A stretch of 64,000 nt of DNA from Sphingobacteriales bacterium (GTDB taxonomy: Bacteria > Bacteroidota > Bacteroidia > Cytophagales > 172606-1): contig JANPIL010000141.1 in the NCBI GenBank assembly GCA_031424975.1, positions 7,293-71,292 on the forward strand. Direction: 5' to 3'. Made by a program: the position numbers and the translations under genes. Shown here in pieces: positions 2,877 through 63,800 of the stretch. The first letter of the stretch is position 1; every line of letters starts with the position of its first letter. Below the pieces are notes generated by a model that had not been told where the DNA came from, ran no database searches, and saw nothing but the letters and a program-made list of their open reading frames with translations.

Positions 2877-2905
2877 AAAATAGTATGTTTTGAAACACGC
2901 AAACC
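2877..2905 (+). repeat. Motif A copy
   Basis: AAAATAGTATGTTTTGAAACACGCAAACC. Confidence 0.9.
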
Positions 2906-3082
2906 TCAAACAGGCTGCTCTTTGCTTTTCATCCCGGCTGCTGTTTTTTTAAAATCAATGCCGCCGCACGAGCCGCAGCCTTTAGCACAGCCTTGCTTGC
3001 TGGCAAACTGCCCACGCACGGTGCGCAGCAAGTAGCCCAACGCCGCCAAAAATACCAGTCCGACAATGATGTTTTCCCACAT
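2906..3082 (-). CDS. Small FeoB-associated Cys-rich membrane protein-like
   Basis: MWENIIVGLVFLAALGYLL transmembrane segment followed by GCAKGCGSC; the upstream ORF extension is repeat-derived. Confidence 0.7.
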   Translation of the reverse strand: MWENIIVGLVFLAALGYLLRTVRGQFASKQGCAKGCGSCGGIDFKKTAAGMKSKEQPV

Positions 3083-3152
3083 GGTCGTGTAACGCAAACC
3101 GTTTACGGTTGGTTTCCAATGGCCGGGCTTTGCGTGTTCCAGCCAACGGGTA

Positions 3153-3205
3153 GGTTTGGGTGTTTTAAAAGCTGAAAGCCCCGTCTTTAGCGGGGATACT
3201 ATTTT
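3153..3205 (-). repeat. Motif A copy split by a 24-bp hairpin insertion
   Basis: GGTTTGGGTGTTTTAAAAG[3172-3195]ATACTATTTT. Confidence 0.9.
3172..3195 (+). mobile_element. 24-bp hairpin insertion element, copy 1
   Basis: CTGAAAGCCCCGTCTTTAGCGGGG; removing it restores a perfect 29-bp Motif A. Confidence 0.8.
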
Positions 3206-3314
3206 TGCCGAAGGGTAGCCGGACTTTCCAAGTCCGGCAGTTGGGCGCAAACTGTGGTTGCGGGTCGTGGGAGACGACCCGCCATTTGCTTGCCCGACAA
3301 ATTATTGTTTTTCA

Positions 3315-3343
3315 AAAATAGTATCCCGCAAAAACCCCAAACC
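3315..3343 (+). repeat. Motif A copy
   Basis: AAAATAGTATCCCGCAAAAACCCCAAACC. Confidence 0.9.
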
Positions 3344-3351
3344 TGCCTGTT

Positions 3352-4149
3352 TTAAGCCTGCCAATGCTTGGCAATCACTTCTTGCATTTCCGCGTGGATA
3401 TTGGCGGCAGCGGCAATGAGTTTTCCGCCGAACAAATGCCCATCGCCACCGCTAAAATCAGTCACCTTGCCGCCCGCCTCCTCCACAATCAGGATGCCCG
3501 CCGCCATATCCCAAGATTTGAGGCCGAATTCATAAAAACCCTCAAACCGTCCGCAGGCCACGTAGGCCAAATCCACGGCCGCCGCCCCAAAACGCCGCAC
3601 CCCGTGCGAATGGCGCACAAAATCCTGCAAGATGGTCAGGTACACGTTTATCTTGGTCGCCACTTCATAAGGAAATCCGGTGGCAATTAGGCCGTGGGCC
3701 AGCGAGGGTGCGTCGGAAGTGCGGATTTTCTTTTGGTTGCAAAATGCCCCGCCACCCTGCCACGCATAAAAACACTCATCCAGGTTGGGTTCGTAAATCA
3801 CGCCCAGAAGCGGCTGTTTGCCCTGCACCAACGCCACGCTGACACAATACACGGGCAGGCCGTGGATGAAATTGGTGGTGCCGTCGAGCGGGTCAATGAT
3901 CCAGTTCAGCGTGTCCGAATGCTTTTCGATGGTGTTTTCCTCGGTGATGAACCCGGCTTCGGGCACCAGACTGGAGAGGCTGGCCACCAATTGCCTTTCG
4001 GCTTCCTTGTCCACGTACGAAACCATGTCGTTGGCCGCACTTTTGTATTCAATGTTGGCCTTGTCAAACGTGGCCGCTTCCTGCTTCAGGAAAGCCCCCG
4101 TCTTCTTGACAATGGCTATGGTGTCTTGGCAAAGCTGGGATAAGTCCAT
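3352..4149 (-). CDS. suhB: Inositol monophosphatase family protein
   Basis: WIIDPLDGTTNF, RRFGAAAVDLAYVACGRFEG and WDMAAG motifs. Confidence 0.9.
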   Translation of the reverse strand: MDLSQLCQDTIAIVKKTGAFLKQEAATFDKANIEYKSAANDMVSYVDKEAERQLVASLSSLVPEAGFITEENTIEKHSDTLNWIIDPLDGTTNFIHGLPVYCVSVALVQGKQPLLGVIYEPNLDECFYAWQGGGAFCNQKKIRTSDAPSLAHGLIATGFPYEVATKINVYLTILQDFVRHSHGVRRFGAAAVDLAYVACGRFEGFYEFGLKSWDMAAGILIVEEAGGKVTDFSGGDGHLFGGKLIAAAANIHAEMQEVIAKHWQA

Positions 4150-4198
4150 AAATAAAAGCCCCGGAGGGGGAGTTTTTGTTGGCCTGTGCGGGGACACA

Positions 4199-4247
4199 GG
4201 TTTGGTGTTTTGAAAAGATACCTGTCTGCCGACAGGCAGGCTATTTT
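4199..4247 (-). repeat. Motif A copy split by a 20-bp palindrome insertion
   Basis: GGTTTGGTGTTTTGAAAAGATA[4221-4240]CTATTTT. Confidence 0.9.
4221..4240 (+). mobile_element. 20-bp palindromic insertion element
   Basis: CCTGTCTGCCGACAGGCAGG inside the Motif A core. Confidence 0.8.
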
Positions 4248-4262
4248 ACGTTTCTTTCACGA

Positions 4263-5477
4263 TTACGTTTCCTTCACGGGTTGGGGGGCGGTCTGTTTTA
4301 CGGACAGCCGCATCCTAAAAACCAAGAAAGCGGAACGCAGCGCAAGTAACAACACTATCGGAATAAGTTCATAATCAATGCGTTGCGGTATAAATTGCCA
4401 ACTACCGAGCAGCAAAACCAAAAGCCCCAAATACGTGACAAAATAAATGCGGAGCCATGCGGGCTTGTGTTTGCGGAGCAGCCACAGCGCCACCGGAAAA
4501 TGCAGCGGCCACGCCCACCACAAATGCCAGTTTTGCACCGTTGCCCGGTGGTCGGTGCCAAACCACAAAAACGCCAGCAGCCAGCCCAGCAACCCAATCA
4601 CCGAAAAAAGGACGGCATCAAGCCAGAATTGCCGCCCCGTGCCGCGAAACTGCCAGATTGTGATCAGAACGCCAACGGCCAGCAGCAACCAGAACAAAAT
4701 CGTGGGCGTAAGCCCATCGGAAAGGGCAGGGCGCGGCACGGCTTGGAACAGCGTCTGGTGCGTGAGTTCAAATTTTTCGGGCTTGCCGTTGCGCATCACC
4801 GTGGCCGTAGCCGTCAGGTTCATCAGGTTGTCGGGCAAGAACATACTTTCATCAGACGAAGCTGGCTTATCGGCCGGTGAGGAAATGCCCAGGTCAATGC
4901 CAAAATCAGCGTAGTGATTATGTTGCAAATAGCGGTCAATCCACTGCCTGAAGGTCAGGCTGTCAGGGTTTTGGCCGAATTTCAGGCTGTCGCCGCACAC
5001 GGCTTGCAGGGCATCGCGCACGCGGGTGGTGCAATTGTCGTAGAAGTGGTCGTATTTGTAATACCGCTGGTCGGGTTGGTAATTGCGCTGCAAAAACGCG
5101 TACAGCTTGGTCACCTGCGCCGGGGAAAGGTTGAGTTGCTGGGCGGTAACGGTGCGGTTTTCGTACTGTGCGCCGTACACCATGTTCTCGATTTTGCCAA
5201 TTGCCAGCGCGTAAAGCAGTTTCCCACGGATGTATTTGATATAAAAATTGGATTCGTTGAAGTCGAACGTGCCATAATTGTACACTTCATTGAGACCCAA
5301 TTGCGGATCCTGGATCCAGAGGGCGGTATGGCCGAAAACGGAATAAAGTTCCTCGCCCGGCGCAACGGTGACCAACGTGGCGGTGGCTTGCGGCGATAGC
5401 GTAACCAATTGCGCCTGAGCGGGTTGCCAGCAAAAAATAAGTCCGGCGGAAAGAAACAGAAAAATGTTTTTGAGCAT
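4263..5477 (-). CDS. DUF4105 / Lnb-like membrane protein
   Basis: Signal peptide, PGEELYSVFGHTAL, YNYGTFDF, YDNCTTR, four C-terminal transmembrane segments. Confidence 0.75.
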   Translation of the reverse strand: MLKNIFLFLSAGLIFCWQPAQAQLVTLSPQATATLVTVAPGEELYSVFGHTALWIQDPQLGLNEVYNYGTFDFNESNFYIKYIRGKLLYALAIGKIENMVYGAQYENRTVTAQQLNLSPAQVTKLYAFLQRNYQPDQRYYKYDHFYDNCTTRVRDALQAVCGDSLKFGQNPDSLTFRQWIDRYLQHNHYADFGIDLGISSPADKPASSDESMFLPDNLMNLTATATVMRNGKPEKFELTHQTLFQAVPRPALSDGLTPTILFWLLLAVGVLITIWQFRGTGRQFWLDAVLFSVIGLLGWLLAFLWFGTDHRATVQNWHLWWAWPLHFPVALWLLRKHKPAWLRIYFVTYLGLLVLLLGSWQFIPQRIDYELIPIVLLLALRSAFLVFRMRLSVKQTAPQPVKET

Positions 5478-5499
5478 GGTGATAATTTAAAAGGAGTGG

Positions 5500-5543: not shown

Positions 5544-5572
5544 GGTTTTGGCTTTTGAAAAGATACTATTTT
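5544..5572 (-). repeat. Motif A copy
   Basis: GGTTTTGGCTTTTGAAAAGATACTATTTT. Confidence 0.9.
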
Positions 5573-5668: not shown

Positions 5669-8311
5669 TCATTCGTACATTTCCTTCAGTTTTCCGCTGG
5701 TTTCCTTGTCCCGGATATCCCGGAGCAATTCGGGCACGCCCTCCGACTCATCAAACATGGCCAGCGTCTGATAGGCATTCAATCGCACGTATTCATTTTT
5801 GGCGTTGCGCGCGGTATTTTCAAGGAAACCAATGCCTTTTTTCTGGATTTCGGCGGGCTGCCTGAGCAAATACGAACCGAACAATTGCGTAAATGGATAC
5901 AGGAAGTCAAGGCTGTTGCGTTTGGCTTTTTCCAAGAACCAATCCAACTGTTCGGTTCCGGCGGTTTCGGCGTAGTAGGCGGCAATGGTAAGCGTGATGT
6001 CGCTGCTGGCCGAGTTGCGGAAAGCCGCCAGTTGCCGTTCAGCATCAGCGGGTTGGGTGCTCAGATAGCCGAATAAGGCGATGGAAACCACGTAGTACGA
6101 CGAATCTTTCAACGCCTGCCGGAAAGCGGCTTGGTAATCCTTGTGTTTCCAGCCAATCATCTTGCTCACAGCCTCGGCACGTACGTACGATTTGGGGTCG
6201 GAAACGGCCATTTTTTCCACAACCGTCTCGTAATCAGACAGTTTTACCACCGGTATTTCGGGTAGGTTGCGTATGGCCATCTGCCGGATCACCCAAGAAG
6301 CATCGTGCAGGGCATCGGCGGCCAGCTTTTTTCTTGAAGGTGTGCCAAAATGTCCGGCGGCGGTTTGGGCATTTTCAGACATACTATTTTTGGCGGAGTC
6401 GGCGGGTGGCTTTTCACCGTTTTCATCAGCCACCACTTCAAACAGCTTGTTAAACGCTTCGTAACGAGCCAAGTACTTGTCCGAATGGTAGTATTGGTAA
6501 GTCAGTTCGGCCTCCGTTTTTTCGTGCGTCACCTTGCCGAGCAACTGGGTTTCGGCATCAAAAAGCACCAAATCGGGTTGGGTGGCCGTTGCAAATGCAA
6601 AGGTTTGGTCGGGTTGGTTGATTACAATATCGCGGACGGTTTTTGTGCCGCCCGCCCATATTTCCACTTGCAGCGGCAGGCGGCAGGTTTTGTCATCGCC
6701 GGATATACTATTTTGGGTCTGCACCCGCAATTGTACTTTTCCGTTGGCATAAGTGTGCGAGACTTTCAGTTCGGGATGGCCCGCCGACAGGAACCACTGG
6801 TCAAAAAACCACTGCAAGTCTTGGCCCGTCACCTCTTCAAAGGCCAGGCGCAAATCGTGGATTTCGGCCTTGTTGTACGCGTGTTTTTTCAGGTACGTGT
6901 TCAGCGACTTAAAAAACGCCTCATCGCCCACGTATTTGCGCAGCATGTGCAGCACGCAGCCGCCCTTCTGGTACGAATGCGCATCGAACATATCCTCCTT
7001 GTCGTTGTAGTAATAGCGAATCAGCGGCTCCTGCTTGGTTTGCGCCTCCGAAAAATACACTTCCTGATCCTGTTGCAGATGGTAGTCGGCTTCGGCGCGG
7101 CCCTGTTTGTGTTCAATCCACAAATACTCGGCGTAGGTGGCAAACGCCTCGTTGAGCGGCAGGTTAGACCATGATTCGCAGGTCACCAAATCGCCGAACC
7201 AATGGTGGAACATTTCGTGCGCAATCACATCGTCGTCGTTTTCATCGAGCAGTTGGTGGCGGTCTTTCTGCACCGATTCGCCAAACACCACCGCGCCGGT
7301 ATTTTCCATTGCGCCCGACACGTAATCGCGCACCACCACTTGGGCGTATTTGTCCCACGGGTACGGATAATCCAGAATTTTGGAGTAAAAGGACAGCATT
7401 TCGGGTGTCCGCCCAAAGATATTTTTGGCGTATTTCTCGTACGGTTTTTCAACCAAGTAGCTCAGTTCCATACCGTTCCACTTGTCGCGCACCACTGCAA
7501 ACTCGCCCACGGCCATCATGAACAAGTACGGCGCGTGCGGCTTGTCCTGCTTCCAATGGTCGGTGCGCGTGCCGTTGGCATTGGATTTGGACGAGATCAG
7601 CAACCCGTTGGAAAGCGTAGTGTATTGCTTGTCCACGGTGATGAAAATCTCCTGCGTGGTGCGTTCGTTGGGCGAGTCAATGGTGGGGAACCAGCACGAA
7701 GAAGCCTCGGTCTCGCCCTGCGTCCAGATTTGGCGCGGCTTGCCGGGTTCCCGGCCATCGGGATTGATGAAATACAGGCCCTTGTCTTCGGTAATGGCCG
7801 CACTGCCGCCTTTGGGCAGGTCGTTGGGCTTGGCCACATACCGTATTCGCACCGTGAATTTTTCGTGGCGGGTGTAGGGTTTGGGCAGTTTCAGGGATAC
7901 TATTTTCTGGTCGTACGTATAAGGCAACGTGGTTTTTTTGGCGGCGGCCACCAACTCAACCGACTGTATGTCAAACCCTTTGGCATTGAGTTGCAGCGAA
8001 TCCTGGGCGTAAAAATGCGGCTTCAGCGTCAGCGTTGCCGTGCCCAGCAGGTGCTGCCTGCCCCAATCAAAACTGACTTCCAGTTTGGTGTGCAGTAGGT
8101 CATGTTTGCGGGTGCGTTCGGGTTGGTAGGGCAGCGGCGCGGTGTCGGCCACAAGGGCAAGGGGCGGCGCGGCCAGCGTGTCGGTGGTGTTGCCGGGCAT
8201 TGCCACCGGCACGTTGGCCGTTGAAGTCTGCGCAATCTTGGGGCTTTTGCACGATTCCAGACTGCCCGCGAGCCACGCCAGACAAACAGCCAGCCATAGT
8301 TTTTTGCCCAT
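5669..8311 (-). CDS. M1 family aminopeptidase, lipoprotein, with HEAT-like C-terminus
   Basis: GAMEN and HEMFHHWFG..E motifs; lipobox-like LESC. Confidence 0.92.
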   Translation of the reverse strand: MGKKLWLAVCLAWLAGSLESCKSPKIAQTSTANVPVAMPGNTTDTLAAPPLALVADTAPLPYQPERTRKHDLLHTKLEVSFDWGRQHLLGTATLTLKPHFYAQDSLQLNAKGFDIQSVELVAAAKKTTLPYTYDQKIVSLKLPKPYTRHEKFTVRIRYVAKPNDLPKGGSAAITEDKGLYFINPDGREPGKPRQIWTQGETEASSCWFPTIDSPNERTTQEIFITVDKQYTTLSNGLLISSKSNANGTRTDHWKQDKPHAPYLFMMAVGEFAVVRDKWNGMELSYLVEKPYEKYAKNIFGRTPEMLSFYSKILDYPYPWDKYAQVVVRDYVSGAMENTGAVVFGESVQKDRHQLLDENDDDVIAHEMFHHWFGDLVTCESWSNLPLNEAFATYAEYLWIEHKQGRAEADYHLQQDQEVYFSEAQTKQEPLIRYYYNDKEDMFDAHSYQKGGCVLHMLRKYVGDEAFFKSLNTYLKKHAYNKAEIHDLRLAFEEVTGQDLQWFFDQWFLSAGHPELKVSHTYANGKVQLRVQTQNSISGDDKTCRLPLQVEIWAGGTKTVRDIVINQPDQTFAFATATQPDLVLFDAETQLLGKVTHEKTEAELTYQYYHSDKYLARYEAFNKLFEVVADENGEKPPADSAKNSMSENAQTAAGHFGTPSRKKLAADALHDASWVIRQMAIRNLPEIPVVKLSDYETVVEKMAVSDPKSYVRAEAVSKMIGWKHKDYQAAFRQALKDSSYYVVSIALFGYLSTQPADAERQLAAFRNSASSDITLTIAAYYAETAGTEQLDWFLEKAKRNSLDFLYPFTQLFGSYLLRQPAEIQKKGIGFLENTARNAKNEYVRLNAYQTLAMFDESEGVPELLRDIRDKETSGKLKEMYE
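6686..6714 (-). repeat. Motif A copy in aminopeptidase CDS (degenerate middle)
   Basis: GGTTTTGTCATCGCCGGATATACTATTTT; encodes QNSISGDDKT. Confidence 0.65.
7878..7906 (-). repeat. Motif A copy in aminopeptidase CDS
   Basis: GGTTTGGGCAGTTTCAGGGATACTATTTT; encodes KIVSLKLPKP. Confidence 0.85.
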
Positions 8312-8478
8312 TGGTTTTCTTTTGTTTACTTGGCGCAAAGAAACGGAAAAGTTGGGGGCGTTTCAAAACATTTTGCGTTTGGCGTTTTTCATTGTCCGCC
8401 ATTCCGCAAAGCCCCCGGACACGCCGGTTTATGTCCATGGCCCGAAGGCTGCGGAGAACATTTATTTTATCCAATGCC

Positions 8479-9874: not shown

Positions 9875-9903
9875 GGTTTGGGCTTTTTAAAGGATACTAT
9901 TTT
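9875..9903 (-). repeat. Motif A copy
   Basis: GGTTTGGGCTTTTTAAAGGATACTATTTT. Confidence 0.9.
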
Positions 9904-9976: not shown

Positions 9977-9997
9977 CCTGCCTGCCGGACAGGCAGG
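9977..9997 (+). repeat. Variant of the 20-bp palindrome
   Basis: CCTGCCTGCCGGACAGGCAGG. Confidence 0.7.
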
Positions 9998-10712: not shown

Positions 10713-10741
10713 GGTTTCGTATTTTGAAAGGATACTATTCT
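10713..10741 (-). repeat. Motif A copy
   Basis: GGTTTCGTATTTTGAAAGGATACTATTCT. Confidence 0.85.
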
Positions 10742-11511: not shown

Positions 11512-11540
11512 AAAACAGTATCTTTTCAAAACGCAAAATC
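11512..11540 (+). repeat. Motif A copy
   Basis: AAAACAGTATCTTTTCAAAACGCAAAATC. Confidence 0.75.
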
Positions 11541-13920: not shown

Positions 13921-13949
13921 GGTTTTGTGTTTTCGAAACATACTATTTT
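13921..13949 (-). repeat. Motif A copy
   Basis: GGTTTTGTGTTTTCGAAACATACTATTTT. Confidence 0.88.
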
Positions 13950-39285: not shown

Positions 39286-39286
39286 T

Positions 39287-52051: not shown

Positions 52052-52140
52052 GATAACATAGTTTTGTGTCTCGATATTCACCGTCAAATAGATGAAGGCG
52101 TGAATCTAACGATTAATGATCAAATTTGAAGTAAAAATTC

Positions 52141-52410: not shown

Positions 52411-52414
52411 ATTT

Positions 52415-53008: not shown

Positions 53009-53085
53009 TTTCTGCTTTGTGTTAATGCAAATTTTTAACCTAAACTCTAACAACACCTATTTTTTCAAAAGCACGAAATCAAACC

Positions 53086-53433: not shown

Positions 53434-53457
53434 TTCTAACGTGTCTAAAAACCTAAA

Positions 53458-53826
53458 TTATAAAACCTCAGGTGCCAAAGAAACTATTTTCATAAATTGT
53501 TTTTCTCGGAGCTCTCTTGCAACTGGGCCAAATATACGCGTACCTCTTGGCTCATCATTATTGTTGAGAAGAACGGCAGCATTATCTTCGAAGCGAATGT
53601 ATGAACCATCCTTGCGACGAATCTCTTTCCTGGTTCTAACCACTACGGCCTTGGAAACCGCACCTTTTTTCAAATTACTCGAAGACATTGAAGACTTTAC
53701 TGAAACCACTATTTTATCCCCAATAGAAGCGTATCGCTTTCCTGTTCCTCCTAACACTCGGATTACTAATACTTCTTTTGCACCGCTGTTATCAGCTACG
53801 CTTAGTCGAGACTCTTGCTGAACCAT
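53458..53826 (-). CDS. rplN: 50S ribosomal protein L14
   Basis: [20 protein letters not shown]. Confidence 0.98.
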
Positions 53827-53828
53827 AG

Positions 53829-54098
53829 TTATTTAGCTTTTTCTATTATTTCGATAAGTCTCCAACGCTTGTTCTTACTGAGAGGTCGCGTTTCCATTAT
53901 TTTGATTGTATCCCCTATGCCACACTCATTTCTTTCGTCATGAGCCATTAATTTCGTTGTTTTTGTCATAAACTTGCCATACTTGGGATGCTTTACTTTT
54001 CTTTCTATGGCAATTGTTATGGACTTGTCCATTTTATTACTTACAACGCGTCCTGTTCGTTCTTTTCTCGCGTTTCTCTCTGACAAGTTTGGTTCCAT
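53829..54098 (-). CDS. rpsQ: 30S ribosomal protein S17
   Basis: [23 protein letters not shown]. Confidence 0.98.
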
Positions 54099-54108
54099 TG
54101 ATTTGGTT

Positions 54109-54309
54109 CTATTTAATGTTTGCTATTTCTCTTGCTTTTATCTCAGTTAGGATTCGGGCAATCATCTTTCGGGATTCACGAATCCTAACTGGACTTTCGA
54201 TTGGGCTAATGGCATGGGCAAATCTTAATTTTTGGAGAGTGATTCTTTCAGAATTCACTCTCTGATGAAGCGCATCAAAGTCCAATGCTTCAATTTCTTT
54301 ATTTTTCAT
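54109..54309 (-). CDS. rpmC: 50S ribosomal protein L29
   Basis: Operon position; [14 protein letters not shown]. Confidence 0.93.
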
Positions 54310-54377
54310 TTTTAAAACAGTATTTTTTATAAAAACTCATTTCGACTAAAAAAATAATCGATTGCAACAAATCGGTA

Positions 54378-54803
54378 TTATTGACCCTCAACATAATCCC
54401 TTCGAACAATAAATCTGGTTTTTACCGGCAATTTTTGTGCTGCCAAACGCAATGCCTCTTGCCCCGTCGCTTTGTCAACGCCTGTTATTTCAAACAAGAT
54501 AGTTCCGGGTTTTATTACTGCGACCCAATATTCAGGTGCGCCTTTTCCTTTACCCATCCTTACCTCAGCTGGTTTTTTGGTGATAGGCTTGTCAGGAAAT
54601 ATACGAATCCAAACTTGACCTTCACGTTTCATTGTGCGCGTCATTGAAATACGTGCCGCTTCAATCTGACGGGAAGTTATCCAACCTGGCTCCAAGGATT
54701 TGACCCCAAATGACCCGAATGCTATCTCGTGTCCTCTCGTCGCCAAACCCTTGACACGACCTTTATGCATTTTCCTAAACTTCGTTCTTTTCGGTTGTAA
54801 CAT
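54378..54803 (-). CDS. rplP: 50S ribosomal protein L16
   Basis: [18 protein letters not shown]. Confidence 0.98.
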
Positions 54804-54859
54804 CGCTTTTCATAAATTTATTTCAAGGTATAGAACCCGATCCGTAACCTCAAATATTC

Positions 54860-55681
54860 CTACCTACTACCGGTTGTGGGGGCTCTTTTCTTCTTCTTAT
54901 TTCTGCGTGCAGAGTCTTTATCACCGCCCTTATCTCTGCTACGATCACTACCTCTGTCACCACCACCCTCGCGGCGGTTACCACGATCATTACTTACATT
55001 GCCACCCGTTGCGGTTGCAGCATTTCCGTATGTTGCATTTGGTGACAAGTCGCGCTTTCCAAACACCTCTCCCTTAAAAATCCATACCTTTATACCTATC
55101 TTACCGTATACGGTTTGCGCTTCTGAAATAGCATAATCAATATCCGCACGCAGTGTGTGCAAAGGTATTCTACCCTCTTTATATTCTTCAGTCCTTGCCA
55201 TATCTGCCCCAGCTAAGCGACCGGATAGACGTACTTTGATCCCTTGAGCTCCCACACGTGTAGCTGCAGAGATAGATTGCTTCATAGCTCGGCGATAGGA
55301 AATGCGAGCCTCCAATTGCTGGGCAATTGATTCACCAACTAATTTGGCATCCAACTCAGGACGTCTAATCTCAAAAATATTGATTTGTACGTCTTTGTTC
55401 GTCAATTTCTTCAACTCCTCCTTCACTCTTTCAACTTCGATACCATTCTTCCCTATCACCACCCCCGGACGAGCAGTATTGACCGTGAGTGTCACGCGCT
55501 TTAATGTACGTTCGATCACAACTTTTGCAATGCCTCCCTTAGGAAAACGAGCCATTACATACTTTCGTATTCTTTCATCCTCAATAAGTTTTTCAGCGAA
55601 ATTTTTTCCGCCATACCAATTGGAATCCCAACCTTTTACAATTCCTAAGCGAAAACCTGTTGGATTGACTTTTTGTCCCAT
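54860..55681 (-). CDS. rpsC: 30S ribosomal protein S3
   Basis: [23 protein letters not shown]. Confidence 0.98.
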
Positions 55682-55699
55682 GCTTATTATTTGGTTTCT

Positions 55700-56077
55700 T
55701 TAATTTTCTTTTTTCGTAGCAGCAGATGCAGCAGTATTTTTTGAATCTAAAACTATGGTTATGTGGTTGGAACGCTTTCGTATACGATGTCCACGTCCTT
55801 GTGGAGCGGGTCTTAATCGTTTAAGCATTCGCCCTTCATCCACAAAAATCATCTTTATAAACAGGTTTGCTTCCTCTATCCTCTCCGCCTCATTTGATTG
55901 TTCCCAGTTAGCTATTGCAGAAAGGAGTAATTGTTCGATTTTTTTGGATCCGGACTTCGAATCGTAACGAAGAAGGTTCAGCGCATCATTTACACGTCTT
56001 CCTCTTACCATGTCCGCTATAAGCCTCATTTTTTGAGGAGAGGTAGGGACGTTTCTTAGTTTAGCTGTTGATTCCAT
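55700..56077 (-). CDS. rplV: 50S ribosomal protein L22
   Basis: [22 protein letters not shown]. Confidence 0.98.
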
Positions 56078-56355
56078 TATTTTTTACCTTTATCCTTGTT
56101 ACCCGAATGACCTCTGAAATTACGAGTCGGCGAAAACTCACCCAATTTGTGCCCTACCATATTCTCGGTGACGTATACTGGAATAAATTTATTCCCATTA
56201 TGAACCGCAAATGTATGACCCACGAAATCAGGTGAAATAGTTGAACGCCGTGCCCAAGTCTTTATAACGGATTTCTTACCTGACCTGCCGACATTCTCTA
56301 TTTTACTTGATAATCGAAAATCTACGTAAGGCCCTTTTTTAATTGAACGTCCCAT
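56077..56355 (-). CDS. rpsS: 30S ribosomal protein S19
   Basis: [19 protein letters not shown]. Confidence 0.98.
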
Positions 56356-56391
56356 TTATGCGAATTGAATTTTACTTATGGAAGTTATATT

Positions 56392-57216
56392 TTATTTTCG
56401 GTTTTTGCGACCCATGATTAAGTCATTCGAATATTTCTTTGGCTTTCTTGTTTTCTTGCCCTTCGCATAAAGTCCGTTACGTGAACGTGGTTGCCCTCCA
56501 GATGCCTTTCCCTCACCACCACCCATTGGATGGTCTACTGGATTCATTGCAACCCCACGTACACGGGGACGACGACCCAACCAGCGCTTACGACCTGCTT
56601 TTCCAAGGCTTACATTCATGTGATCTGCATTTGACACAGACCCTATAGTAGCCATACATGTAACCAACACCAATCGCATTTCTCCTGAAGGAAGTTTAAG
56701 CGTTGCATATTTCCCCTCACGTGCTACTAACTGTGCATACGTTCCCGCACTGCGAGCCATGGCTCCACCCCGACCAGGCTGCAGTTCTATGTTGTGTACA
56801 ACAGTTCCCATTGGTATGTCGGATAAAGGAAGTGCATTCCCGACTTCAGGAACAGAACCAGCACCTGAACTCACAATTTGACCAACGGATATTCCTGTAG
56901 GAGCAATTATATATCTTTTTTCTCCATCAGCATATGTCAATAAAGCTATACGAGCTGATCGGTTTGGATCATATTCAACTGTATCAACGGTAGCACTTAT
57001 GTGTTTATCTCTTTTAAAGTCTATTATGCGATACCTGCGTTTGTGACCACCGCCTATGTAACGCATGGCTCGATGTCCACTATCGTTTCTTCCCCCACTT
57101 TTCTTTATCGCCGCAGTAAGGGGCTTGTAAGGCTTACTTACTGTGATTTCCTCAAACGCAGGGGCGACTCTAAATCGTTGACCTGGTGTAGTTGGTTTTA
57201 GTTTTTTTACAGCCAT
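56392..57216 (-). CDS. rplB: 50S ribosomal protein L2
   Basis: [25 protein letters not shown]. Confidence 0.98.
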
Positions 57217-57276
57217 TTTCGTAAACTTTTACTTCAGAGGAGAGCGTGCTGTGACACATGCCATTAAATTCGCCAG

Positions 57277-57561
57277 TTATTCTCCGTAAAAATCAATTAC
57301 CTCGCCATCAGATAATGATATCATTGCCTTTTTATAGGTACTTGTACGTCCTCTGCTTACTTTCGACTGGCTTGAACGAGATTTAGCTTTGCCTACGCAT
57401 CGAATAGTTCTGACTACATTAACATTAACATTATACAAACTTTCGATTGCTTTTTTTATTTCAATTTTATTGGCACTCTTGTCAACCTCAAAAGTATACA
57501 CTCCCTTTTCGGACATTGCATTTGCTTTCTCAGTTATGATTGGCTTTTTTATAATACTCAT
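57277..57561 (-). CDS. rplW: 50S ribosomal protein L23
   Basis: PIITEK..ANKIEIKKA..YKKA. Confidence 0.97.
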   Translation of the reverse strand: MSIIKKPIITEKANAMSEKGVYTFEVDKSANKIEIKKAIESLYNVNVNVVRTIRCVGKAKSRSSQSKVSRGRTSTYKKAMISLSDGEVIDFYGE

Positions 57562-57569
57562 GATTGTGA

Positions 57570-58193
57570 TTATTTTAACAATTCTTCAATTTTCGACAGT
57601 GAGGTTTCACTTATAAACAGGTGATCCGCATGTATCAAGGCGTGAGTATTCAACTGATTGACTAACATTACTTTTGCCTTTGGAAGATTACGGCTGGATA
57701 AGACAACATTCATGTTCGTTTCTGGCAGCACCATTAGCGTTTTTTTATCAGCCGCACCCAAACTTTGCAGTATTTTCAGATAGTCTTTCGTCCGTGGCTG
57801 ATTCAAAGTAAATTCCTCCAGAATTGTAATCGAGTCTTTTGCTTTGTAAGAGAGGGCGGACTTGCGAGCCAGTTCTTTTACTTTTTTGTTTAATTTGAAG
57901 CCGTAATCGCGTGGGACCGGTCCAAAAACGCGACCGCCATGACGGTACAGAGGGTTTTTAATGCTTCCTTTTCGCGAGCCTCCCGTACCTTTTTGCTTGT
58001 GCAACTTACGCGTGGAGCCATGAACTTCATTTCGCTGTTTTGCCTTATGTGTTCCTTGGCGTTGATTGGCCATGAACTGCTTTACATCCAAATAGATGGC
58101 GTGATTGTTTGGTATTATTCCAAAAATAGAGTCAACAAGGACAACCTTCCTGCCTGTATCTTTTCCGTCGATGCTATGTATTGCGATTTCCAT
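57570..58193 (-). CDS. rplD: 50S ribosomal protein L4
   Basis: RQGTHKAK..QKGTGGSRKG. Confidence 0.98.
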   Translation of the reverse strand: MEIAIHSIDGKDTGRKVVLVDSIFGIIPNNHAIYLDVKQFMANQRQGTHKAKQRNEVHGSTRKLHKQKGTGGSRKGSIKNPLYRHGGRVFGPVPRDYGFKLNKKVKELARKSALSYKAKDSITILEEFTLNQPRTKDYLKILQSLGAADKKTLMVLPETNMNVVLSSRNLPKAKVMLVNQLNTHALIHADHLFISETSLSKIEELLK

Positions 58194-58232
58194 AAAAAAT
58201 ATCTGTCATTGTTGCGTGAGAAAGTTCGCGCA

Positions 58233-58868
58233 TTACATAAATTCTCTGTGATTGTCTATAACAACAAATGAACTTTTCGCTCCCGGAACCGAGCCGCTGA
58301 CCAGAATCAGATTCTTTTCGGGAATTACTTTTAAGATACGCAGATTCTGGATAGTAACACGGTTGCCACCAGTTCTGCCTGCCATTCGTAATCCTTTAAA
58401 AACACGAGCCGGGAAAGAACAAGCCCCTATTGATCCCGGGTGGCGCTGGCGATTGTGTTGGCCGTGGGTTGCTCCTCCAACACCACTGAAACCATGCCTC
58501 TTAACAACACCTTGAAAACCTTTTCCTTTGGAAGTTCCTACAACATCTATGAATTCTCCCGCTTCACACACGTCTTCTGCTTTTACCGTATCCCCCAGAC
58601 TCACGTCTATTAAAAAATCCTTAAATTCTACCAGTTTACGCTTAGGGGTTGTGTTTGCTTTTTTGAAATGCCCCAGCAAAGGCTTTGTCGTGTTTTTCTC
58701 TCTCTTGTCACCGAAAGCAAGTTGTATCGCCGCATATCCATCGGTTTGCATAGTTTTAACCTGCGTTACGGCACATGGCCCAGCTTCAATAACGGTACAT
58801 GCCACACTTTCACCATTTTCAGTGAAAATGGTAGTCATTCCGATTTTCTTTCCTATTATCCCTGACAT
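58233..58868 (-). CDS. rplC: 50S ribosomal protein L3
   Basis: [17 protein letters not shown]. Confidence 0.98.
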
Positions 58869-58952
58869 GGTTGCTTAAAAAATATATTTGTACGTTGCCA
58901 TCAAGAATCTTCTCTTCAAAATAGCAACAAACTACCTTTTTGAAACGGATTG

Positions 58953-58960
58953 CAAAGGTA
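58953..58960 (-). promoter_or_regulatory. Bacteroidota -7 promoter element (rplC)
   Basis: TACCTTTG on the - strand in the 223-bp rpsJ-rplC gap. Confidence 0.6.
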
Positions 58961-59091
58961 ATGATTGAGAATGGTATTGCAAGAAAATGTTAAAAAAAAT
59001 CATTATTTGGTCGCTTGCCTTCATTGCAAGAAACATATTGCCACCAAACTAATCTATTTGTGCGCAATCGAATTTCCCTTACAAGTTCGCG

Positions 59092-59397
59092 TCAGACCTT
59101 AATTTCCACGTCAACGCCGCTCGGAAGCTCAAGTTTCATCAATGCATCTACCGTTTTTGCACTTGATGAATGAATATCAATTAACCGCTTGTACGTGCAT
59201 AACTGAAATTGCTCGCGCGACTTTTTGTTTACGTGTGGAGAGCGCAAAACAGTAAACCTTTCCATCTCCGTTGGCAAAGGAATCGGACCACTTACCACAG
59301 CACCCGTAGATTTAACAGCCTTAACAATTCTTTCGCACGATTTGTCCACGAGGCTGTGGTCAAATGACTTTAATTTGATGCGGATTTTCTGTGTCAT
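59092..59397 (-). CDS. rpsJ: 30S ribosomal protein S10
   Basis: [20 protein letters not shown]. Confidence 0.98.
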
Positions 59398-59504
59398 TTT
59401 ATCAAAGTTCGTTAATCAAATTCAAAAATTTTTTCCCAGCACGAGGGTTCGAACATATGTGTTTGGCCGTATCAAACCTCGCAACCTGCACGGTAAAGGA
59501 AAAA

Positions 59505-61646
59505 TTACTTTGCCCCCTTTATTCTGGCAATCTCTACTTCTGCCAAGTTAGAAGGCAGTATTTCGTAGTGCGAAAACGTCAAACTGGCAGCAGCTCGACC
59601 TGAGGTGATTGTCCGTAGGTCTGTTACATACCCGAACAATTTTGATAGCGGCACATCGGCCTTTACAACTTGGGAACCAGCTTTACTATCCATTCCTTTC
59701 ATCACGCCACGACGCCGGTTCAAGTCACCAGTAACAGGGCCGGTGAATTCATCGGGGGTTATAACCTCCACGCTCATTATTGGTTCAAGCAATTTGGGGC
59801 CGGCTTGCTTTGCTGCTTCCCGGAAACCATCGCGGGCGGCTATCTCAAAGGAAAGCGAATCCGAATCCACGTCATGATAGGAGCCATGGAACAATCGGAT
59901 TTTCATGTTATCCAATGGAAACCCTGCTAATGTGCCAGTTTTCATGGCTTCCGCAAAGCCTTTTTCCACTGCCGGAATAAATTCCCGTGGAATCACACCG
60001 CCCACAATTCCATTTACAAACTGGAAACTCAAGGTGGGATTAGCTACTTTCCACTCCTCATCTACTGGGCTCATTTCAAACACGATGTCCGCAAATTTTC
60101 CACGGCCACCGGTTTGTTTCTTGAACAATTCACGGTGTTCAACCGACTTAGTGATGGTTTCCTTGAAAGCGACTTGTGGCGCACCTTGATTGATTTCAAC
60201 ATTGAATTCACGCCGCATCCGGTCAATAATAATCTCCAAGTGCAACTCACCCATACCTCTCAGAATGGTTTGACCTGTCTCCTGATCCGTTTCCACACGG
60301 AGCGTAGGATCTTCCTCCACCAACTTTGTAATGGCATTGCTCAACTTATCGGCATCCGCTTGTTTCTTAGGCTCAATAGCATACCCGATTACCGGCTCGG
60401 GGAAACTCATTGATTCAAGTATGATAGGCTTATCTTCAAACACAAGTGTGTCGCCGGTTTTTATATCCTTGAAGCCCACACCTGCCGCAATATCACCCGC
60501 CTCCACCTTGTCAATCGGGTTTTGTTTGTTGGCATGCATCTGCATCAGGCGAGAAATGCGTTCTTTTTTGCCGGTACGCATATTTAATACGTAAGACCCC
60601 GCATCCAAGAAGCCGGAATACACACGAAAGAATGCCAGACGACCTACGTAAGGATCAGTGGCAATTTTGAAAGCCAAGGCAGCAAAAGGTTCCTTGTTAT
60701 CCGCTTTCCTTTCCTCTTCCTTTCCCGTATCCGGATTTTCCCCTTTAACGGGAGGCAAATCCATGGGAGACGGCAAGTATGCCATCACAGCATCCAGCAT
60801 GGTCTGTACGCCTTTGTTTTTGAAAGCAGAACCGCACAACACTGGGGTTATATCCATGGCTATCGTCGCCTTACGGATAGCAACCATCAGTTCGTCGCGG
60901 GTGATGGTATCAGGGTTATCAAAGAATTTTTCCAGCAACTTGTCATCATATTCGGCAATCGACTCCACCAGATATTGCCGCCACTCATTAGCCGTTTCCA
61001 CTAAGTCTTCCGGAATCTCAACTACTTTGTAAGTCTTGCCTTTATCCTCCTCATTCCAAATAATTCCTTGCATAGTCAGCAAGTCCACTACGCCCTTGAA
61101 CTGGGCTTCAGCCCCAATGGGAATTTGCAAGGGAACGGGCTTAGCACTGAGTTTTTCCTTTATCTCCTTTACGCAATTGTAGAAGTCAGCACCATCACGA
61201 TCCATCTTGTTGACAAAACAGAGGCGGGGCACACCATATTTGTTGGCTTGCCGCCATACTGTTTCGGATTGAGGTTCGACACCCGAAACCGCATCAAACA
61301 ATGCCACCGCACCATCAAGCACACGCAAAGAACGTTCGACTTCCACAGTAAAATCCACGTGGCCGGGTGTGTCAATCAGGTTAATCTCGTATGTTTTGGT
61401 GACACCTGCAATAGGATCACCTTGTTCGGTCGGGTAATTCCACTGCGAATGGGTAGCGGCAGACGTAATCGTGATTCCTCGCTCCTGTTCCTGCACCATC
61501 CAATCCATTGTGGCGGCACCATCATGGACTTCCCCTATCTTATGGGTTCTTCCGGTATAATAAAGAATGCGTTCACTTGTGGTGGTTTTACCAGCATCAA
61601 TGTGAGCCATGATGCCAATGTTGCGCAGATAATGTAAATCGGCCAT
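59505..61646 (-). CDS. fusA: Elongation factor G
   Basis: [23 protein letters not shown]. Confidence 0.98.
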
Positions 61647-61822
61647 AATTCTGATTACCTGTCGGTAGTAATGTTTGGTTTTTTTAAAGCGGGTTCGATT
61701 CTCACAAGAAAAGCGGACAATTCAGCCGCTTTTCCTTGCAGACGGAACAAGGTGGTTTAACTTTTTGAGAAAGATTGCCTCCGTTTAAATTTCAGGCATT
61801 CCATCCGGCTTTGCACCCTACA

Positions 61823-62290
61823 TCAGAATCTGAAGTGCGAGAAAGCTTTGTTTGCATCGGCCATGCGGTGCGTGTCATCTTTCTTTTTCACTGCGGCACC
61901 TTCGCCTTTGGCAGCGGCAACAATTTCGCCCGCCAGCCTTTCGGTCATTGTCTTCTCTCCTCGCCGACGCGAATACATAATCATCCACTTGATTCCCAAT
62001 GCCTGCTTCCTTTCGGGGCGAATCTCCGTGGGTACCTGGAATGTTGCACCACCCACTCGGCGGCTGCGTACTTCCACACCGGGCATAATGTTGTTCAAAG
62101 CTTTTCTCCAAATGTCCAAGCCATTTTCGCTGGTGCGTTTGGACACCATTTCAACCGCGTCGTAGAAAATAGCATACGCGGTGCTTTTCTTGCCATCATA
62201 CATCAGAGAATTAACAAATTTGGTCACCAGCACATCCTTGAACTTAGGATCGGGCAATACGTAGCGTTTTTTGGGTTTCGACTTTCTCAT
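61823..62290 (-). CDS. rpsG: 30S ribosomal protein S7
   Basis: [20 protein letters not shown]. Confidence 0.98.
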
Positions 62291-62451
62291 GGCTTTCGTG
62301 TGTGTTTACACAGCGCTTCTCCGGAATTTTACCACCGAATACTCACGATATTTTGTGTTTTTATGAAATATATAAGTTGAATGGCGAATTTTACTTACTT
62401 AAAACGCACTGTTTTCTTCGGCTGCTTTTTTCCAAAAACCTTTCTGCCCGG

Positions 62452-62853
62452 CTATTTCTTTTTGGCCGGTGCTGGCTGACCCGGTTTCGGTCTTTTCGCG
62501 CCGTACTTTGAACGCCCTTGCTTACGGTTGGCTACGCCAGCCGTGTCCAACGCGCCACGCACAATGTGGTAGCGAACACCCGGCAAATCCTTCACCCTGC
62601 CACCTCGGATAAGCACGATTGAGTGTTCCTGCAAATTGTGCCCCTCGCCCGGAATGTACGCGTTCACTTCCTTCGTATTACTCAAACGGATGCGAGCTAC
62701 CTTGCGCAAAGCTGAATTCGGCTTCTTTGGCGTAGTCGTGTACACGCGGGTACACACTCCCCGGCGCTGCGGGCATGAATCCAAGGCGGGTGATTTGGAC
62801 TTAAACTCCAGCTTTACCCTTCCCTTGCGTACTAACTGTTGGATGGTTGGCAT
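62452..62853 (-). CDS. rpsL: 30S ribosomal protein S12
   Basis: [21 protein letters not shown]. Confidence 0.98.
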
Positions 62854-62902
62854 TTATGAATAATTTTTGGCGTTGCTTGATTGGGTTTTTATTTTGGGAA
62901 TG

Positions 62903-62910
62903 CAAAATTA
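62903..62910 (-). promoter_or_regulatory. Bacteroidota -7 promoter element (rpsL)
   Basis: TAATTTTG on the - strand, about 50 bp before the ATG. Confidence 0.6.
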
Positions 62911-62981
62911 GGGCTTTCCGTGAGGAATACAAAAATCTTATACAATTTTTCCATCGCGTTCTGATTTGGCTCCTGCCAAAA

Positions 62982-63016
62982 GCAAAAAGTCGCGGTTGTG
63001 AACTGCGACTTTTTGC
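62982..63016 (-). terminator. Hairpin downstream of purE
   Basis: GCAAAAAGTCGC-loop-GCGACTTTTTGC. Confidence 0.7.
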
Positions 63017-63075
63017 GTAGAACCAATGAAAATGCCCCTTTCAGGCTATCTGAAACGCTTGTGTGCCTACCCTCG

Positions 63076-63104
63076 AAAATAGTATCTTTCTAAAACCCGA
63101 AACC
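63076..63104 (+). repeat. Motif A copy (first after the motif desert)
   Basis: AAAATAGTATCTTTCTAAAACCCGAAACC. Confidence 0.9.
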
Positions 63105-63127
63105 TGTAATCCGAAATTTCAGATTGG

Positions 63128-63616
63128 TTAGAATTGGGGCTGGTTAAGACGTTCATTCATTTTTTCGACCCGGTTTTTCAATTCCTCCTTGTAGCGAGCC
63201 AGCTTGTCGGCAATCTTCTCGTCAGACACGCTCAGGATCTGAGCGGCCAAAATGGCGGCATTTTTTGCGCCATCTAACGCAACCGTGGCTACCGGAACGC
63301 CGCCGGGCATTTGCAATATGGACAGTATGGAATCCCAGCCGTCAATGGAATTGGAGGATTTGACGGGAACCCCGATGACTGGCAAGGTTGTCATGGCGGC
63401 TACCATGCCGGGCAGATGCGCCGCGCCGCCCGCCCCGGCAATGATTACTTTAATGCCACGTCCGCGGGCATTTTGCGCGTATTCCACCATGCGCAGTGGT
63501 GTGCGGTGTGCCGACACAACGGATATTTCGTAAGGGATATTCAATTCCTGCAACATATTGGCCGCGTCTGACATGACCCTGAAATCAGATTCGCTACCCA
63601 TGATTATTCCTATCAT
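63128..63616 (-). CDS. purE: N5-CAIR mutase
   Basis: [32 protein letters not shown]. Confidence 0.97.
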
Positions 63617-63698
63617 ATATTTATTTGAATGCAATTGAAAATATGGCTTTGCAACCGTTAATATTTTTCATGGAAAAAATAACATTATTTCCCGAATG

Positions 63699-63706
63699 CA
63701 AATATA
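63699..63706 (-). promoter_or_regulatory. Bacteroidota -7 promoter element (purE)
   Basis: TATATTTG on the - strand. Confidence 0.5.
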
Positions 63707-63771
63707 ACGACTTTTCACGGCGGCGAGAAAGGGTTTACAAAGAATTTTGTGTTGGCTGGATGGCGATTGAC

Positions 63772-63800
63772 AAAATAGTATCTTCCGAATGTGCCAAACC
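63772..63800 (+). repeat. Motif A copy
   Basis: AAAATAGTATCTTCCGAATGTGCCAAACC. Confidence 0.88.

Follow-up and report, generated by a model that had tools for sequence, protein, structure and literature searches.

A 29-bp word, referred to here as Motif A, is scattered over a 64,000-nt stretch (hereafter, the window) of contig JANPIL010000141.1 from the Sphingobacteriales bacterium assembly GCA_031424975.1 and over the rest of that genome. Motif A is a genomic signature of the type left by the uptake signal sequences (USS) of Pasteurellaceae and the DNA uptake sequences (DUS) of Neisseriaceae, present in environmental bacteria, a clade of Cytophagales, in which the known readers of such words were not detected. 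Since the USS and DUS genomic properties that could be tested were found for Motif A, with rarity in AT-rich, possibly acquired DNA among them (PMC1626085, PMC2397512), we tentatively favor the reading that it is a USS-like "self" word that would be kept by drive, by selection, or by both, through biased uptake or recombination. Our confidence goes no further than this, as the searches brought up no candidate reader and all carriers are uncultured.

The core of the word, AAAATAGTAT, was matched 51 times in the window with at most one mismatch, compared to 4.6 ± 2.1 times in shuffled sequences. When the AAACC tail was also required at its fixed offset, 34 intact 29-bp copies were obtained on both strands, 32 of them at 2.9 to 43.6 kb and 2 at 63 kb; with two further copies that are interrupted by mini-hairpins (3153-3205 and 4199-4247), the total is 36, as counted in an earlier note on this DNA. 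The consensus of 2,229 exact genomic cores, AAAATAGTAT-C-TTT-y-r-AAAA-g-s-C-C-AAACC-c, carries information only from -1 to +32 and bears out the anatomy described in that note (an invariant core, a variable middle, a conserved end, a fixed length, and no tandem or palindromic arrangement). In the whole assembly of the studied genome (G000; 4.6 Mb in 515 contigs, 52.9% GC), the exact pattern AAAATAGTAT-N14-AAACC occurs 1,892 times, whereas the reversed control pattern does not occur at all. Scored over the 15 fixed positions, G000 has 1,892, 1,170, 392, and 416 sites at zero, one, two, and three mismatches, against 0, 0, 24, and 224 for the reversed control, which amounts to ~3,450 sites with up to two mismatches versus 24 and to a mean spacing of 1.44 kb. 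Given that the counts lie far above the control across the genome, Motif A is no local peculiarity of the window. The earlier note had proposed a genome-wide signal recognized by a protein: the genome-wide part holds, and neither a gene nor a tandem repeat nor the end of an insertion sequence (IS) accounts for Motif A; recognition by a protein would still be a matter of interpretation. Perfect copies were more common than copies with one mismatch (1,892 versus 1,170), a spectrum that also characterizes USS, in which perfect copies exceed singly mismatched ones, unlike the case for ordinary regulatory binding sites (PMC1626085).

The word is confined to a small group of relatives. G000 belongs to the GTDB genus that includes Xanthocytophaga flavus NT2B1 (G005). 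Exact copies numbered 1,892 in G000, 1,809 in G003 (91.5 to 91.8% nucleotide identity to G000), 2,294 in G004 (7.2 Mb, 100% complete, ~65% amino acid identity to G000), 110 in G001, and 6 each in X. flavus and G002, with 0 to 1 in each of 35 genomes sampled from other genera. A scan of 401 Cytophagales genomes from 158 genera with the 11-mer AAAATAGTATC recovered the same carriers only, so that the comparison with relatives suggested in the earlier note places the word in one Xanthocytophaga subclade; G002 and G005 showed at most a 2- to 3-fold excess over the control. That note knew of no such motif in Cytophagales, and our literature search with the core sequence likewise returned irrelevant matches only; a search for uptake-type signal sequences in Bacteroidota found no description. 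A search of IMG/VR for phage arrays of the word gave 8 single hits and no phage contig with more than one copy.

Our detailed comparisons with G003, G004, X. flavus, and G001 used samples of 150 to 400 kb, the G001 sample being drawn from contigs already known to contain the motif. The core AAAATAGTAT is identical in G000 and G004, whereas the tail differs by dialect, reading ...nnnAAAACC in G004 (AAAATAGTATCTTTnnAAAAnnnAAAACC) and ...gsCCAAACC in G000. No other word was found in X. flavus, as 400 kb contained no over-represented 10-mer. GC content within the genus ranges from ~39 to 41% in X. flavus through 45% in G004 and 53% in G000 to 52 to 58% in the sampled pieces of G001. In total, G001 has only 110 to 137 Motif A copies, and in the 151 kb sampled (contigs L194 to L213), GCGTTTTGGGCAA(AAA) was the most abundant 10- to 13-mer (~79 copies). 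The G001 lineage may thus have a second such word.

Copies within genes appear to have been made by substitution. The M1 aminopeptidase gene of the window (5669-8338, minus strand; Pfam Peptidase_M1 and M1_N) contains three Motif A copies in two reading frames. An alignment with seven orthologues revealed no indel at two of these sites, with X. flavus KIIGIKLAKP matched to G000 KIVSLKLPKP at the first and SPSDEDVSQVY matched to QNSISGDDKTC at the second; the third site lies in an indel-rich linker. At 12 further loci, for which X. flavus and G002 orthologues were aligned (together with two outgroup genera at 8 of them), the word occupies the same codons in G000 and G004 and is missing from X. 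flavus, G002, and the outgroup genera. The aligned positions scored 7 to 12 out of 15 in the noncarriers and 13 to 15 out of 15 in G004. Nine of these 12 loci were gap-free relative to motif-less orthologues, bringing the coding sites without length change to 11/15 overall, and the X. flavus residues at these loci resemble those of the outgroups (IVFEGK versus SIFFEGK; YPVIYG versus FPTIFG). Since gaps are mostly lacking and X. flavus sides with the outgroups, these alignments indicate that the coding copies are derived and were made by substitution rather than insertion. Redfield and colleagues used the same gap test to show that USS are not insertions (PMC1626085).

Once present in a gene, the word tends to stay. 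From a 400-kb sample of G004, we took 30 coding copies and looked for their counterparts in G000; among the 28 that were informative, ~20 stood at the same codons in G000, with the surrounding protein only 50 to 85% identical. On the coding strand, Motif A yields the peptides xNSIxxxxKT(P) and KIVSL..KP, and on the opposite strand it yields ..ILF, DTIL, and PTIF. At the distance between G000 and G004, the alignments indicate that spacer copies turn over while coding copies persist.

Over the shorter distance to G003, a 240-kb alignment held ~117 copies at the same place in both genomes, with gains and losses almost nil and no site at which an intact Motif A was cleanly present in one genome and missing from the other. 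The few differences were short indels due to slippage, a pair of segments that had been replaced untidily, and a single intragenic case that involved substitutions only, in which AAAAATAGTATCTCCCAGGATACCAAAACC in G003 corresponds to AAAAACAACCTCTCGCACGACACCAGAACC in G000 (8 changes in 29 nt, near-identical flanks). Treangen and colleagues ascribed such clusters of changes in DUS to recombination rather than to serial point mutation (PMC2397512). Across 79 shared intergenic copies, identity was 0.98 in the core, 0.99 in the tail, 0.915 in the middle, and 0.82 and 0.77 at the two central positions, while the flanks were 0.87 to 0.89 identical; the ascertainment bias in this comparison of core and tail with flanks is a factor of two at most.

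The central positions behave differently from the rest of the word. Mutual information was found only between neighboring middle positions and in a weak mini-palindrome, TTTY|RAAA, at whose center flips between CA and TG are frequent. The flip at positions 14 and 15 turns CTTTCAAAAG into CTTTTGAAAG, its own reverse complement (for example, in window copies 2877 and 5544 relative to G003). These two positions diverge faster than the flanks between G000 and G003 (0.82 and 0.77 versus 0.88), as expected from template switching in the mini-palindrome. A hairpin of RNA or single-stranded DNA was considered and rejected, as the consensus folds at the level of shuffled sequences (-0.6 kcal/mol, z = -1.2) and long-range covariation is lacking.

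Motif A lies mostly between genes. Using our own two-model Markov gene finder in place of a curated annotation (3,876 genes, 82% coding), we found that 77% of 3,160 G000 copies were intergenic and 16% were wholly intragenic. Of the 517 intragenic copies, 325 read along the coding strand and 192 along the opposite one, and 205 copies genome-wide overlapped a gene end. Copies were densest in convergent spacers (4.47 per kb), followed by tandem (3.17) and divergent (2.18) spacers and by coding sequence (0.14). At least one copy was present in 54 to 65% of spacers, and the number per spacer grew less than proportionally with spacer length.

Orientation was balanced. Exact G000 copies were split into 911 forward and 981 reverse; relative to flanking genes, 752 were co-oriented and 697 anti-oriented, and 380 lay start to start versus 377 end to end. 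There was no peak in the distance of G000 copies to gene starts or ends and no per-contig strand skew. Within 400 kb of one G004 replichore, where the GC skew was positive in 9 of 10 40-kb bins, there were 109 plus and 129 minus copies (runs-test z = 0.37). Pairs 20 to 200 bp apart were direct in 327 cases and inverted in 128, with no favored spacing, and inward-facing cores were the rarest class at short range. Since orientation is random and no distance peak exists, a promoter, an operator of fixed geometry, and a terminator are excluded, and this includes the Bacteroidota sigma-A promoter (-33 TTTG/-7 TAnnTTTG), which would call for a fixed orientation and distance upstream of gene starts. 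The earlier note had considered Chi and a polar recombination hotspot. Because the G000 contigs have no skew and the G004 replichore has no polarity, a Chi-like signal or one like the FtsK-orienting polar sequences (KOPS) is excluded.

The copies also avoid certain regions. In the window, few or no copies fall in the AT-rich islands at 10.75 to 15.0, 18.43 to 19.1, and 24.25 to 26.6 kb, and the interval 43608-63075, which holds a ribosomal protein/elongation factor G (EF-G) operon, is the longest desert on contigs of at least 20 kb (gap of 19,497 bp). The operon has 37 to 47% GC in 2-kb windows (mostly 39 to 42%), compared with 53% for the genome. Density was 0.27 to 0.29 copies per kb in 2-kb windows of 36 to 44% GC, versus ~0.7 at 48 to 56% GC. 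DUS are absent from recently acquired genes (PMC2397512). The ribosomal operon is native DNA yet a desert, and it is composition only that suggests acquisition of the AT-rich islands. Candidate causes of the low GC content of the operon are codon selection, low recombination, and a lag behind a shift in composition. GC content at third codon positions (GC3) was flat (0.68 to 0.69) from 100 to 1,500 bp from copies and ~0.50 to 0.53 beyond 5 kb; GC-biased conversion centered on the copies was rejected, as GC3 drops only in the deserts.

Three side observations concern composition. The AT-rich islands (27 to 45% GC) begin within ~150 bp of copies 10713, 15020, 18404, 19108, and 24077, whose orientation is inconsistent. 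The GC content of the ribosomal operon equals that of motif-less X. flavus (39 to 41%). Finally, contigs C201 (84 kb, 45.4% GC) and C379 (45 kb, 49.7% GC) contain 12 and 2 copies, compared with ~55 and ~30 expected. Possible explanations are that they represent a mobile element, DNA gained recently, or contamination during binning.

The copies in the window and the long desert are as follows.

2877-2905, plus strand: Motif A, intergenic, at the same place in G003.
3153-3205, minus strand: Motif A split between T9 and C10 by the 24-bp hairpin H24 (3172-3195); G003 has an intact 29-bp copy and no insert.
3315-3343, plus strand: Motif A, intergenic (motif scan; G003 alignment).
4199-4247, minus strand: Motif A split between G6 and T7 by the 20-bp palindrome P20 (4221-4240); insert absent in G003.
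5544-5572, minus strand: Motif A, intergenic, 3' of the M1 peptidase gene (motif scan; G003 alignment).
6362-6390, minus strand: Motif A coding for KNSMSENAQT of the M1 peptidase, within a variable linker that differs from orthologues by an indel.
6686-6714, minus strand: Motif A in the M1 peptidase gene, peptide QNSISGDDKT, no indel relative to orthologues.
7878-7906, minus strand: Motif A in the Peptidase_M1_N domain, peptide KIVSLKLPKP, no indel relative to orthologues.
9875-9903, minus strand: Motif A, intergenic.
10713-10741, minus strand: Motif A with core AGAATAGTAT, left edge of an AT-rich island.
11512-11540, plus strand: Motif A with core AAAACAGTAT, within the AT-rich island.
13921-13949, minus strand: Motif A.
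15020-15048, minus strand: Motif A; gene 15042-18380 (1,112 aa) uses its TAG (15042-15044) as a stop codon, as read from the sequence.
18404-18432, minus strand: Motif A, left edge of an AT-rich islet.
19108-19136, plus strand: Motif A with core CAAATAGTAT, right edge of the islet.
19196-19224, plus strand: Motif A in direct orientation, 59 bp past the copy at 19108-19136.
21328-21356, plus strand: Motif A.
21604-21632, minus strand: Motif A in the 5' part of the open reading frame (ORF) 21371/21551-24277, on the strand opposite to the ORF.
24077-24105, plus strand: Motif A at the 3' end of ORF 21371-24277, same strand, ~150 bp before an AT-rich island (~24.25 kb).
27456-27484, plus strand: Motif A.
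27724-27752, minus strand: Motif A.
27874-27902, minus strand: Motif A in direct orientation, 121 bp from the copy at 27724-27752.
29729-29757, plus strand: Motif A with core AAAACAGTAT.
30707-30735, plus strand: Motif A.
31593-31621, minus strand: Motif A.
32800-32828, plus strand: Motif A.
33147-33175, minus strand: Motif A with core GAAATAGTAT.
34814-34842, minus strand: Motif A with core GAAATAGTAT.
36546-36574, minus strand: Motif A.
37974-38002, minus strand: Motif A in gene 37320-39251 (minus), same strand.
38999-39027, plus strand: Motif A in gene 37320-39251 (minus), opposite strand.
39287-39315, plus strand: Motif A with core GAAATAGTAT.
42396-42424, minus strand: Motif A.
43579-43607, minus strand: Motif A with core AAAATAATAT, the last before the ribosomal-operon desert.
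43608-63075, no strand: 19.5-kb stretch free of Motif A, ribosomal protein/EF-G operon.
63076-63104, plus strand: Motif A.
63772-63800, plus strand: Motif A.

Motif A is also the preferred landing site of two mini-hairpins, H24 and P20/21, in G000 and G003, and ~20 hairpin insertions were polymorphic between these genomes in the 240-kb alignment. H24, a 24-bp hairpin (CCCCGCTAAAGACGGGGCTTTCAG), has 133 copies in G000, of which 128 are within Motif A, 80 exactly at T9^C10 and 48 inverted, just before the CCAAACC end. Since H24 insertions are present in one of G000 and G003 and absent from the other, this element has moved recently, and it appears to insert only into Motif A. The palindrome P20/21, CCTGyCTG-N4-5-CAGrCAGG, has ~158 G000 copies, of which 88 are within Motif A (37 at AAAATAG^TAT and 51 at GTATC^TTT); the remaining copies fall within a further two families of repeats (one being ..GAGATAG^..^GAATCTCGG, the other placing them next to CCCCCTCCGAAAGAGGGGG). 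The window holds P20/21 at 4221-4240, 9977-9997, and 37276-37295, and the element is polymorphic relative to G003. One P21 sits in frame inside a coding Motif A, yielding KIVSL-PVRQAGF-ENAKP (G000 contig C324). The nickase-site idea raised for Motif A in the earlier note is supported only indirectly, by the insertion of the two mini-hairpins at fixed bonds of the core.

Likely movers of these hairpins are Y1 enzymes. G000 encodes a REP-associated tyrosine transposase (RAYT, where REP stands for repetitive extragenic palindrome; NCBIfam NF047646, 100 bits versus a cutoff of 80) at C17:2834-3385, beside comEC (410-2602), and three IS200-type Y1 transposases of 153 to 155 aa. G003 has a weak Y1 (PF01797) match in the matching position beside comEC (L116:1489-1950), and no Y1 (PF01797) gene was found in G004, G002, or G005. 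G004 has ~2,300 Motif A copies, yet no Y1 or RAYT gene, hairpin insert, or other repeat family. Since G004 carries Motif A without Y1 genes or hairpins, the word is independent of these enzymes, and dependence on RAYT or IS200 was rejected. The spacers of G000 contain other repeats as well, including GCCTCCCCCAACCCCCTCCGAAAGAGGGGGCTTTT (~200 copies, terminator-like), GGACTTGGAAAGTCC (~100 copies), and a ~75-bp unit that contains the hairpin GGTCTGACACACAGTGTCAGACC and is often flanked on both sides by Motif A in direct orientation; these spacers are mosaics of several small repeat families, similar to bacterial interspersed mosaic elements (BIMEs).

The likeness to known signals is closest for USS. 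The Pasteurellaceae USS (Hin-type AAGTGCGGT plus two AT-rich segments, ~29 bp) shares with Motif A an asymmetric ~10-bp core followed by two A/T-rich blocks, a density near 1 copy per 1 to 1.5 kb, a lack of orientation bias, a dominance of perfect copies, coding copies made by substitution according to the gap test, and subclade dialects (PMC1626085). Unlike USS, Motif A is found in Bacteroidota, has an unrelated sequence, occurs in carriers without a type IV pilus ATPase, and is limited to part of one genus rather than being family-wide. A further difference is that only 16% of its copies are intragenic, whereas about two-thirds of the USS copies of Haemophilus influenzae lie inside genes. 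The Neisseriaceae DUS, which is read by the minor pilin ComP, resembles Motif A, which is probably over-represented in native DNA and scarce in AT-rich islands whose composition suggests acquisition, and also in being located at permissive sites, highly conserved amid fast-evolving surroundings, and divided into lineage dialects (PMC2397512, PMC3630211, PMC3868556). Both words also show changes that are too clustered for independent point mutation (8/29 nt between G003 and G000 for Motif A). In contrast, DUS are 10 to 12 bp long and often form inverted terminator pairs, while Motif A has 29 bp and no excess of inverted pairs. A receptor of the ComP pilin type is unlikely in the Motif A carriers, as a pilus ATPase was not detected, although pilins were not searched for.

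Two other kinds of abundant repeat bear comparison. Cyanobacterial HIP1 (GCGATCGC) is, like Motif A, hyper-abundant and kept at orthologous positions, with a function that is not known (PMC5861425). HIP1 is an 8-bp palindrome that is linked to an orphan methyltransferase and found phylum-wide, whereas Motif A is a 29-bp asymmetric word of one small clade. As with HIP1, Motif A hosts very small mobile hairpins (128/133 H24 and 88/~158 P20/21); Elhai et al. are said to have described in 2008 the small dispersed repeat SDR5 inserted in HIP1. REP elements and BIMEs with a RAYT (REPINs) resemble Motif A in being mostly extragenic, densest between convergent genes, and part of mosaic spacers, and a RAYT is encoded in G000. 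Unlike REP elements, Motif A has no palindrome, arises in coding sequence by substitution, and is as abundant in G004, which is free of Y1 and RAYT genes; the REP-like behavior belongs to hairpins P20/21 and H24.

How a USS-like word might be maintained can be outlined as follows. A sequence-specific protein would read the duplex word through its asymmetric 10-bp core AAAATAGTAT, its easily deformed TTTY|RAAA center, and its (C)CAAACC end. Copies would not be transposed; they would arise in place, by point substitution or short recombination patches, wherever they are tolerated, namely, in spacers (most densely in convergent ones) and in parts of proteins under little constraint. Some directional force acting on the entire genome would then hold them near the consensus: fragments bearing the word would preferentially be taken up or recombined, and word alleles would spread by molecular drive, with or without selection for exchange within the species. 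We infer both the reading of the word by a protein and biased uptake or recombination as the force. If uptake is involved, the reader should not be a type IV pilus.

The uptake machinery itself does not single out the carriers. ComEC (PF03772) was detected in 7 of the 8 genomes searched, with no match in G001, which is 72% complete, and DprA (PF02481) was detected in all 8. The type IV pilus or type II secretion ATPase (PF00437; PilB/PilT) was found in none of G000, G001, G004 (100% complete), and G005. Type IV pili are required in both of the known systems with uptake signals. Given that PF00437 is absent, the type IV pilus route of those systems is not available. Riemerella anatipestifer, the only Bacteroidota species in which transformation genes have been screened, takes up DNA without a pilus and requires ComEC, DprA, a helix-hairpin-helix protein, a CarboxypepD_reg outer membrane barrel, and a DUF5689 surface protein (PMC8459023). 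DUF5689 (PF18942) was not found in any of the 8 genomes, whereas the Bacteroides thetaiotaomicron control was detected. The earlier note's suggestion of an uptake signal is thus borne out for every genomic hallmark that can be tested and not for the machinery, as neither the PilB/PilT ATPase nor the DUF5689 receptor was detected and ComEC and DprA also occur in noncarriers; its proposed check of competence genes recovered ComEC and DprA and no PF00437, the pilins themselves not having been searched for.

Several of these observations weigh against a USS-like word. ComEC and DprA do not discriminate between carriers and noncarriers, and both PF00437 and DUF5689 are absent from the carriers searched. 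Copies are spaced nearly at random rather than regularly (coefficient of variation, 1.0 in G000 and 0.89 in G004), and synonymous GC content shows no local gradient around them, only a difference between the deserts and the rest of the genome. In syntenic spacers of G000 and G004, both genomes carried a copy in 23/73 cases, versus 20 expected, and the orientation agreed in 9/18; since this sharing is at chance level, the rise of new spacer copies is not observed. Two trees were used to weigh a single gain of the word against a loss in X. flavus: the M1 tree nested X. flavus among the carriers with moderate support, and a 1,747-column concatenate from which the motif sites had been masked gave a polytomy. 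All carriers are, moreover, uncultured metagenome-assembled genomes (MAGs).

The main rival reading, which we consider unlikely, is that Motif A is an array of sites for an abundant, clade-specific intracellular DNA-binding protein, under weak selection at each site and unrelated to uptake. The protein would, for example, be one that structures the nucleoid, a gyrase or other topoisomerase at its loading site, or a nuclease or defense system that needs a self-marker. The conservation of the word above its flanks, its stability within genes, and the occupancy of 54 to 65% of spacers, with less than proportional numbers in longer ones, would all suit such an array, as would the failure to find uptake-pilus machinery (PF00437) or DUF5689. 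The preference for convergent spacers points the same way, given that gyrase- and IHF-binding REP/BIME elements show this bias as well, and the insertion of hairpins at fixed core bonds suggests a site that is often distorted or nicked. Nevertheless, a spectrum dominated by perfect copies (1,892 versus 1,170) is unlike that of ordinary binding sites (PMC1626085), amino acid-changing selection on each of ~3,400 sites would impose a heavy load, and sister species, including X. flavus, manage entirely without the word; in addition, the lack of polarity excludes Chi-like protection.

More improbable is the view that Motif A is a tiny nonautonomous mobile element, of the REP/REPIN, miniature inverted-repeat transposable element (MITE), or cyanobacterial small dispersed repeat (SDR) type, moved by an enzyme supplied in trans, with the coding copies being tolerated in-frame insertions. 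Its very strong consensus is typical of elements multiplied by copying, the intergenic copies of G000 and G004 are randomly oriented and have been turned over completely, direct pairs 20 to 200 bp apart are enriched (327 versus 128 inverted), the G000 spacers are repeat mosaics, a linker rich in indels holds one of the M1 peptidase copies, and G000 encodes a RAYT and IS200-type Y1 transposases. However, 11/15 coding sites show no change in length relative to motif-less orthologues, and 29 bp is not a multiple of three. At 92% identity, 240 kb contained no clean presence or absence of the word, whereas the same alignments revealed ~20 polymorphic hairpins. Motif A also lacks terminal inverted repeats, a target duplication, a preferred pair spacing, and a hairpin (-0.6 kcal/mol, z = -1.2); G004 maintains ~2,300 copies without a Y1 transposase or other repeats; and a multicopy transposase family was not found. 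MITEs, IS ends, and pairs bracketing genes were rejected for the lack of an excess of inverted pairs, of a clean indel in 240 kb, and of a multicopy transposase in the assembly. Very improbable is the reading that the word acts in transcription (as a promoter, terminator, or operator specific to this lineage) or gives the chromosome polarity (as Chi or FtsK-orienting KOPS would). That 77% of copies are intergenic and that the reverse complement holds TTTG and TA-rich blocks, loosely like the Bacteroidota -33/-7 promoter, could be read in its favor, but there is neither orientation toward gene starts or ends nor a distance peak, 517 copies lie inside genes on both strands, sister species without the word show that it cannot be a housekeeping promoter, replichore polarity is absent, and Motif A has no hairpin or U-tract.

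Returning to the USS-like reading, to our knowledge only two families, both proteobacterial, are known to take up DNA in a sequence-specific manner. It is possible, if rather doubtful, that Motif A is an uptake or recombination specificity signal in Bacteroidota, which would make it the first outside Proteobacteria, with a reader that is neither a type IV pilus nor the DUF5689 system and as part of a wider habit of clade-specific ~28-bp words.

Motif A has some uses of its own. It is a sharp marker that separates native from acquired DNA and allows binning and contamination to be checked in these MAGs, and it explains peptides that recur in unrelated proteins (xNSIxxxxKT, KIVSL..KP, ..ILF, and DTIL). 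As a landing pad for two polymorphic hairpins of 20 to 24 bp, it also gives a natural setting in which to study mobile elements of very small size. The known uptake signals underlie much of the thinking on bacterial "sex" and species barriers. If another process lies behind Motif A, the USS signature would no longer be diagnostic of uptake; if uptake does, these bacteria would have reached the same solution on different hardware, and the word would provide a route to their DNA receptor and to genetic tools for uncultured Bacteroidota.

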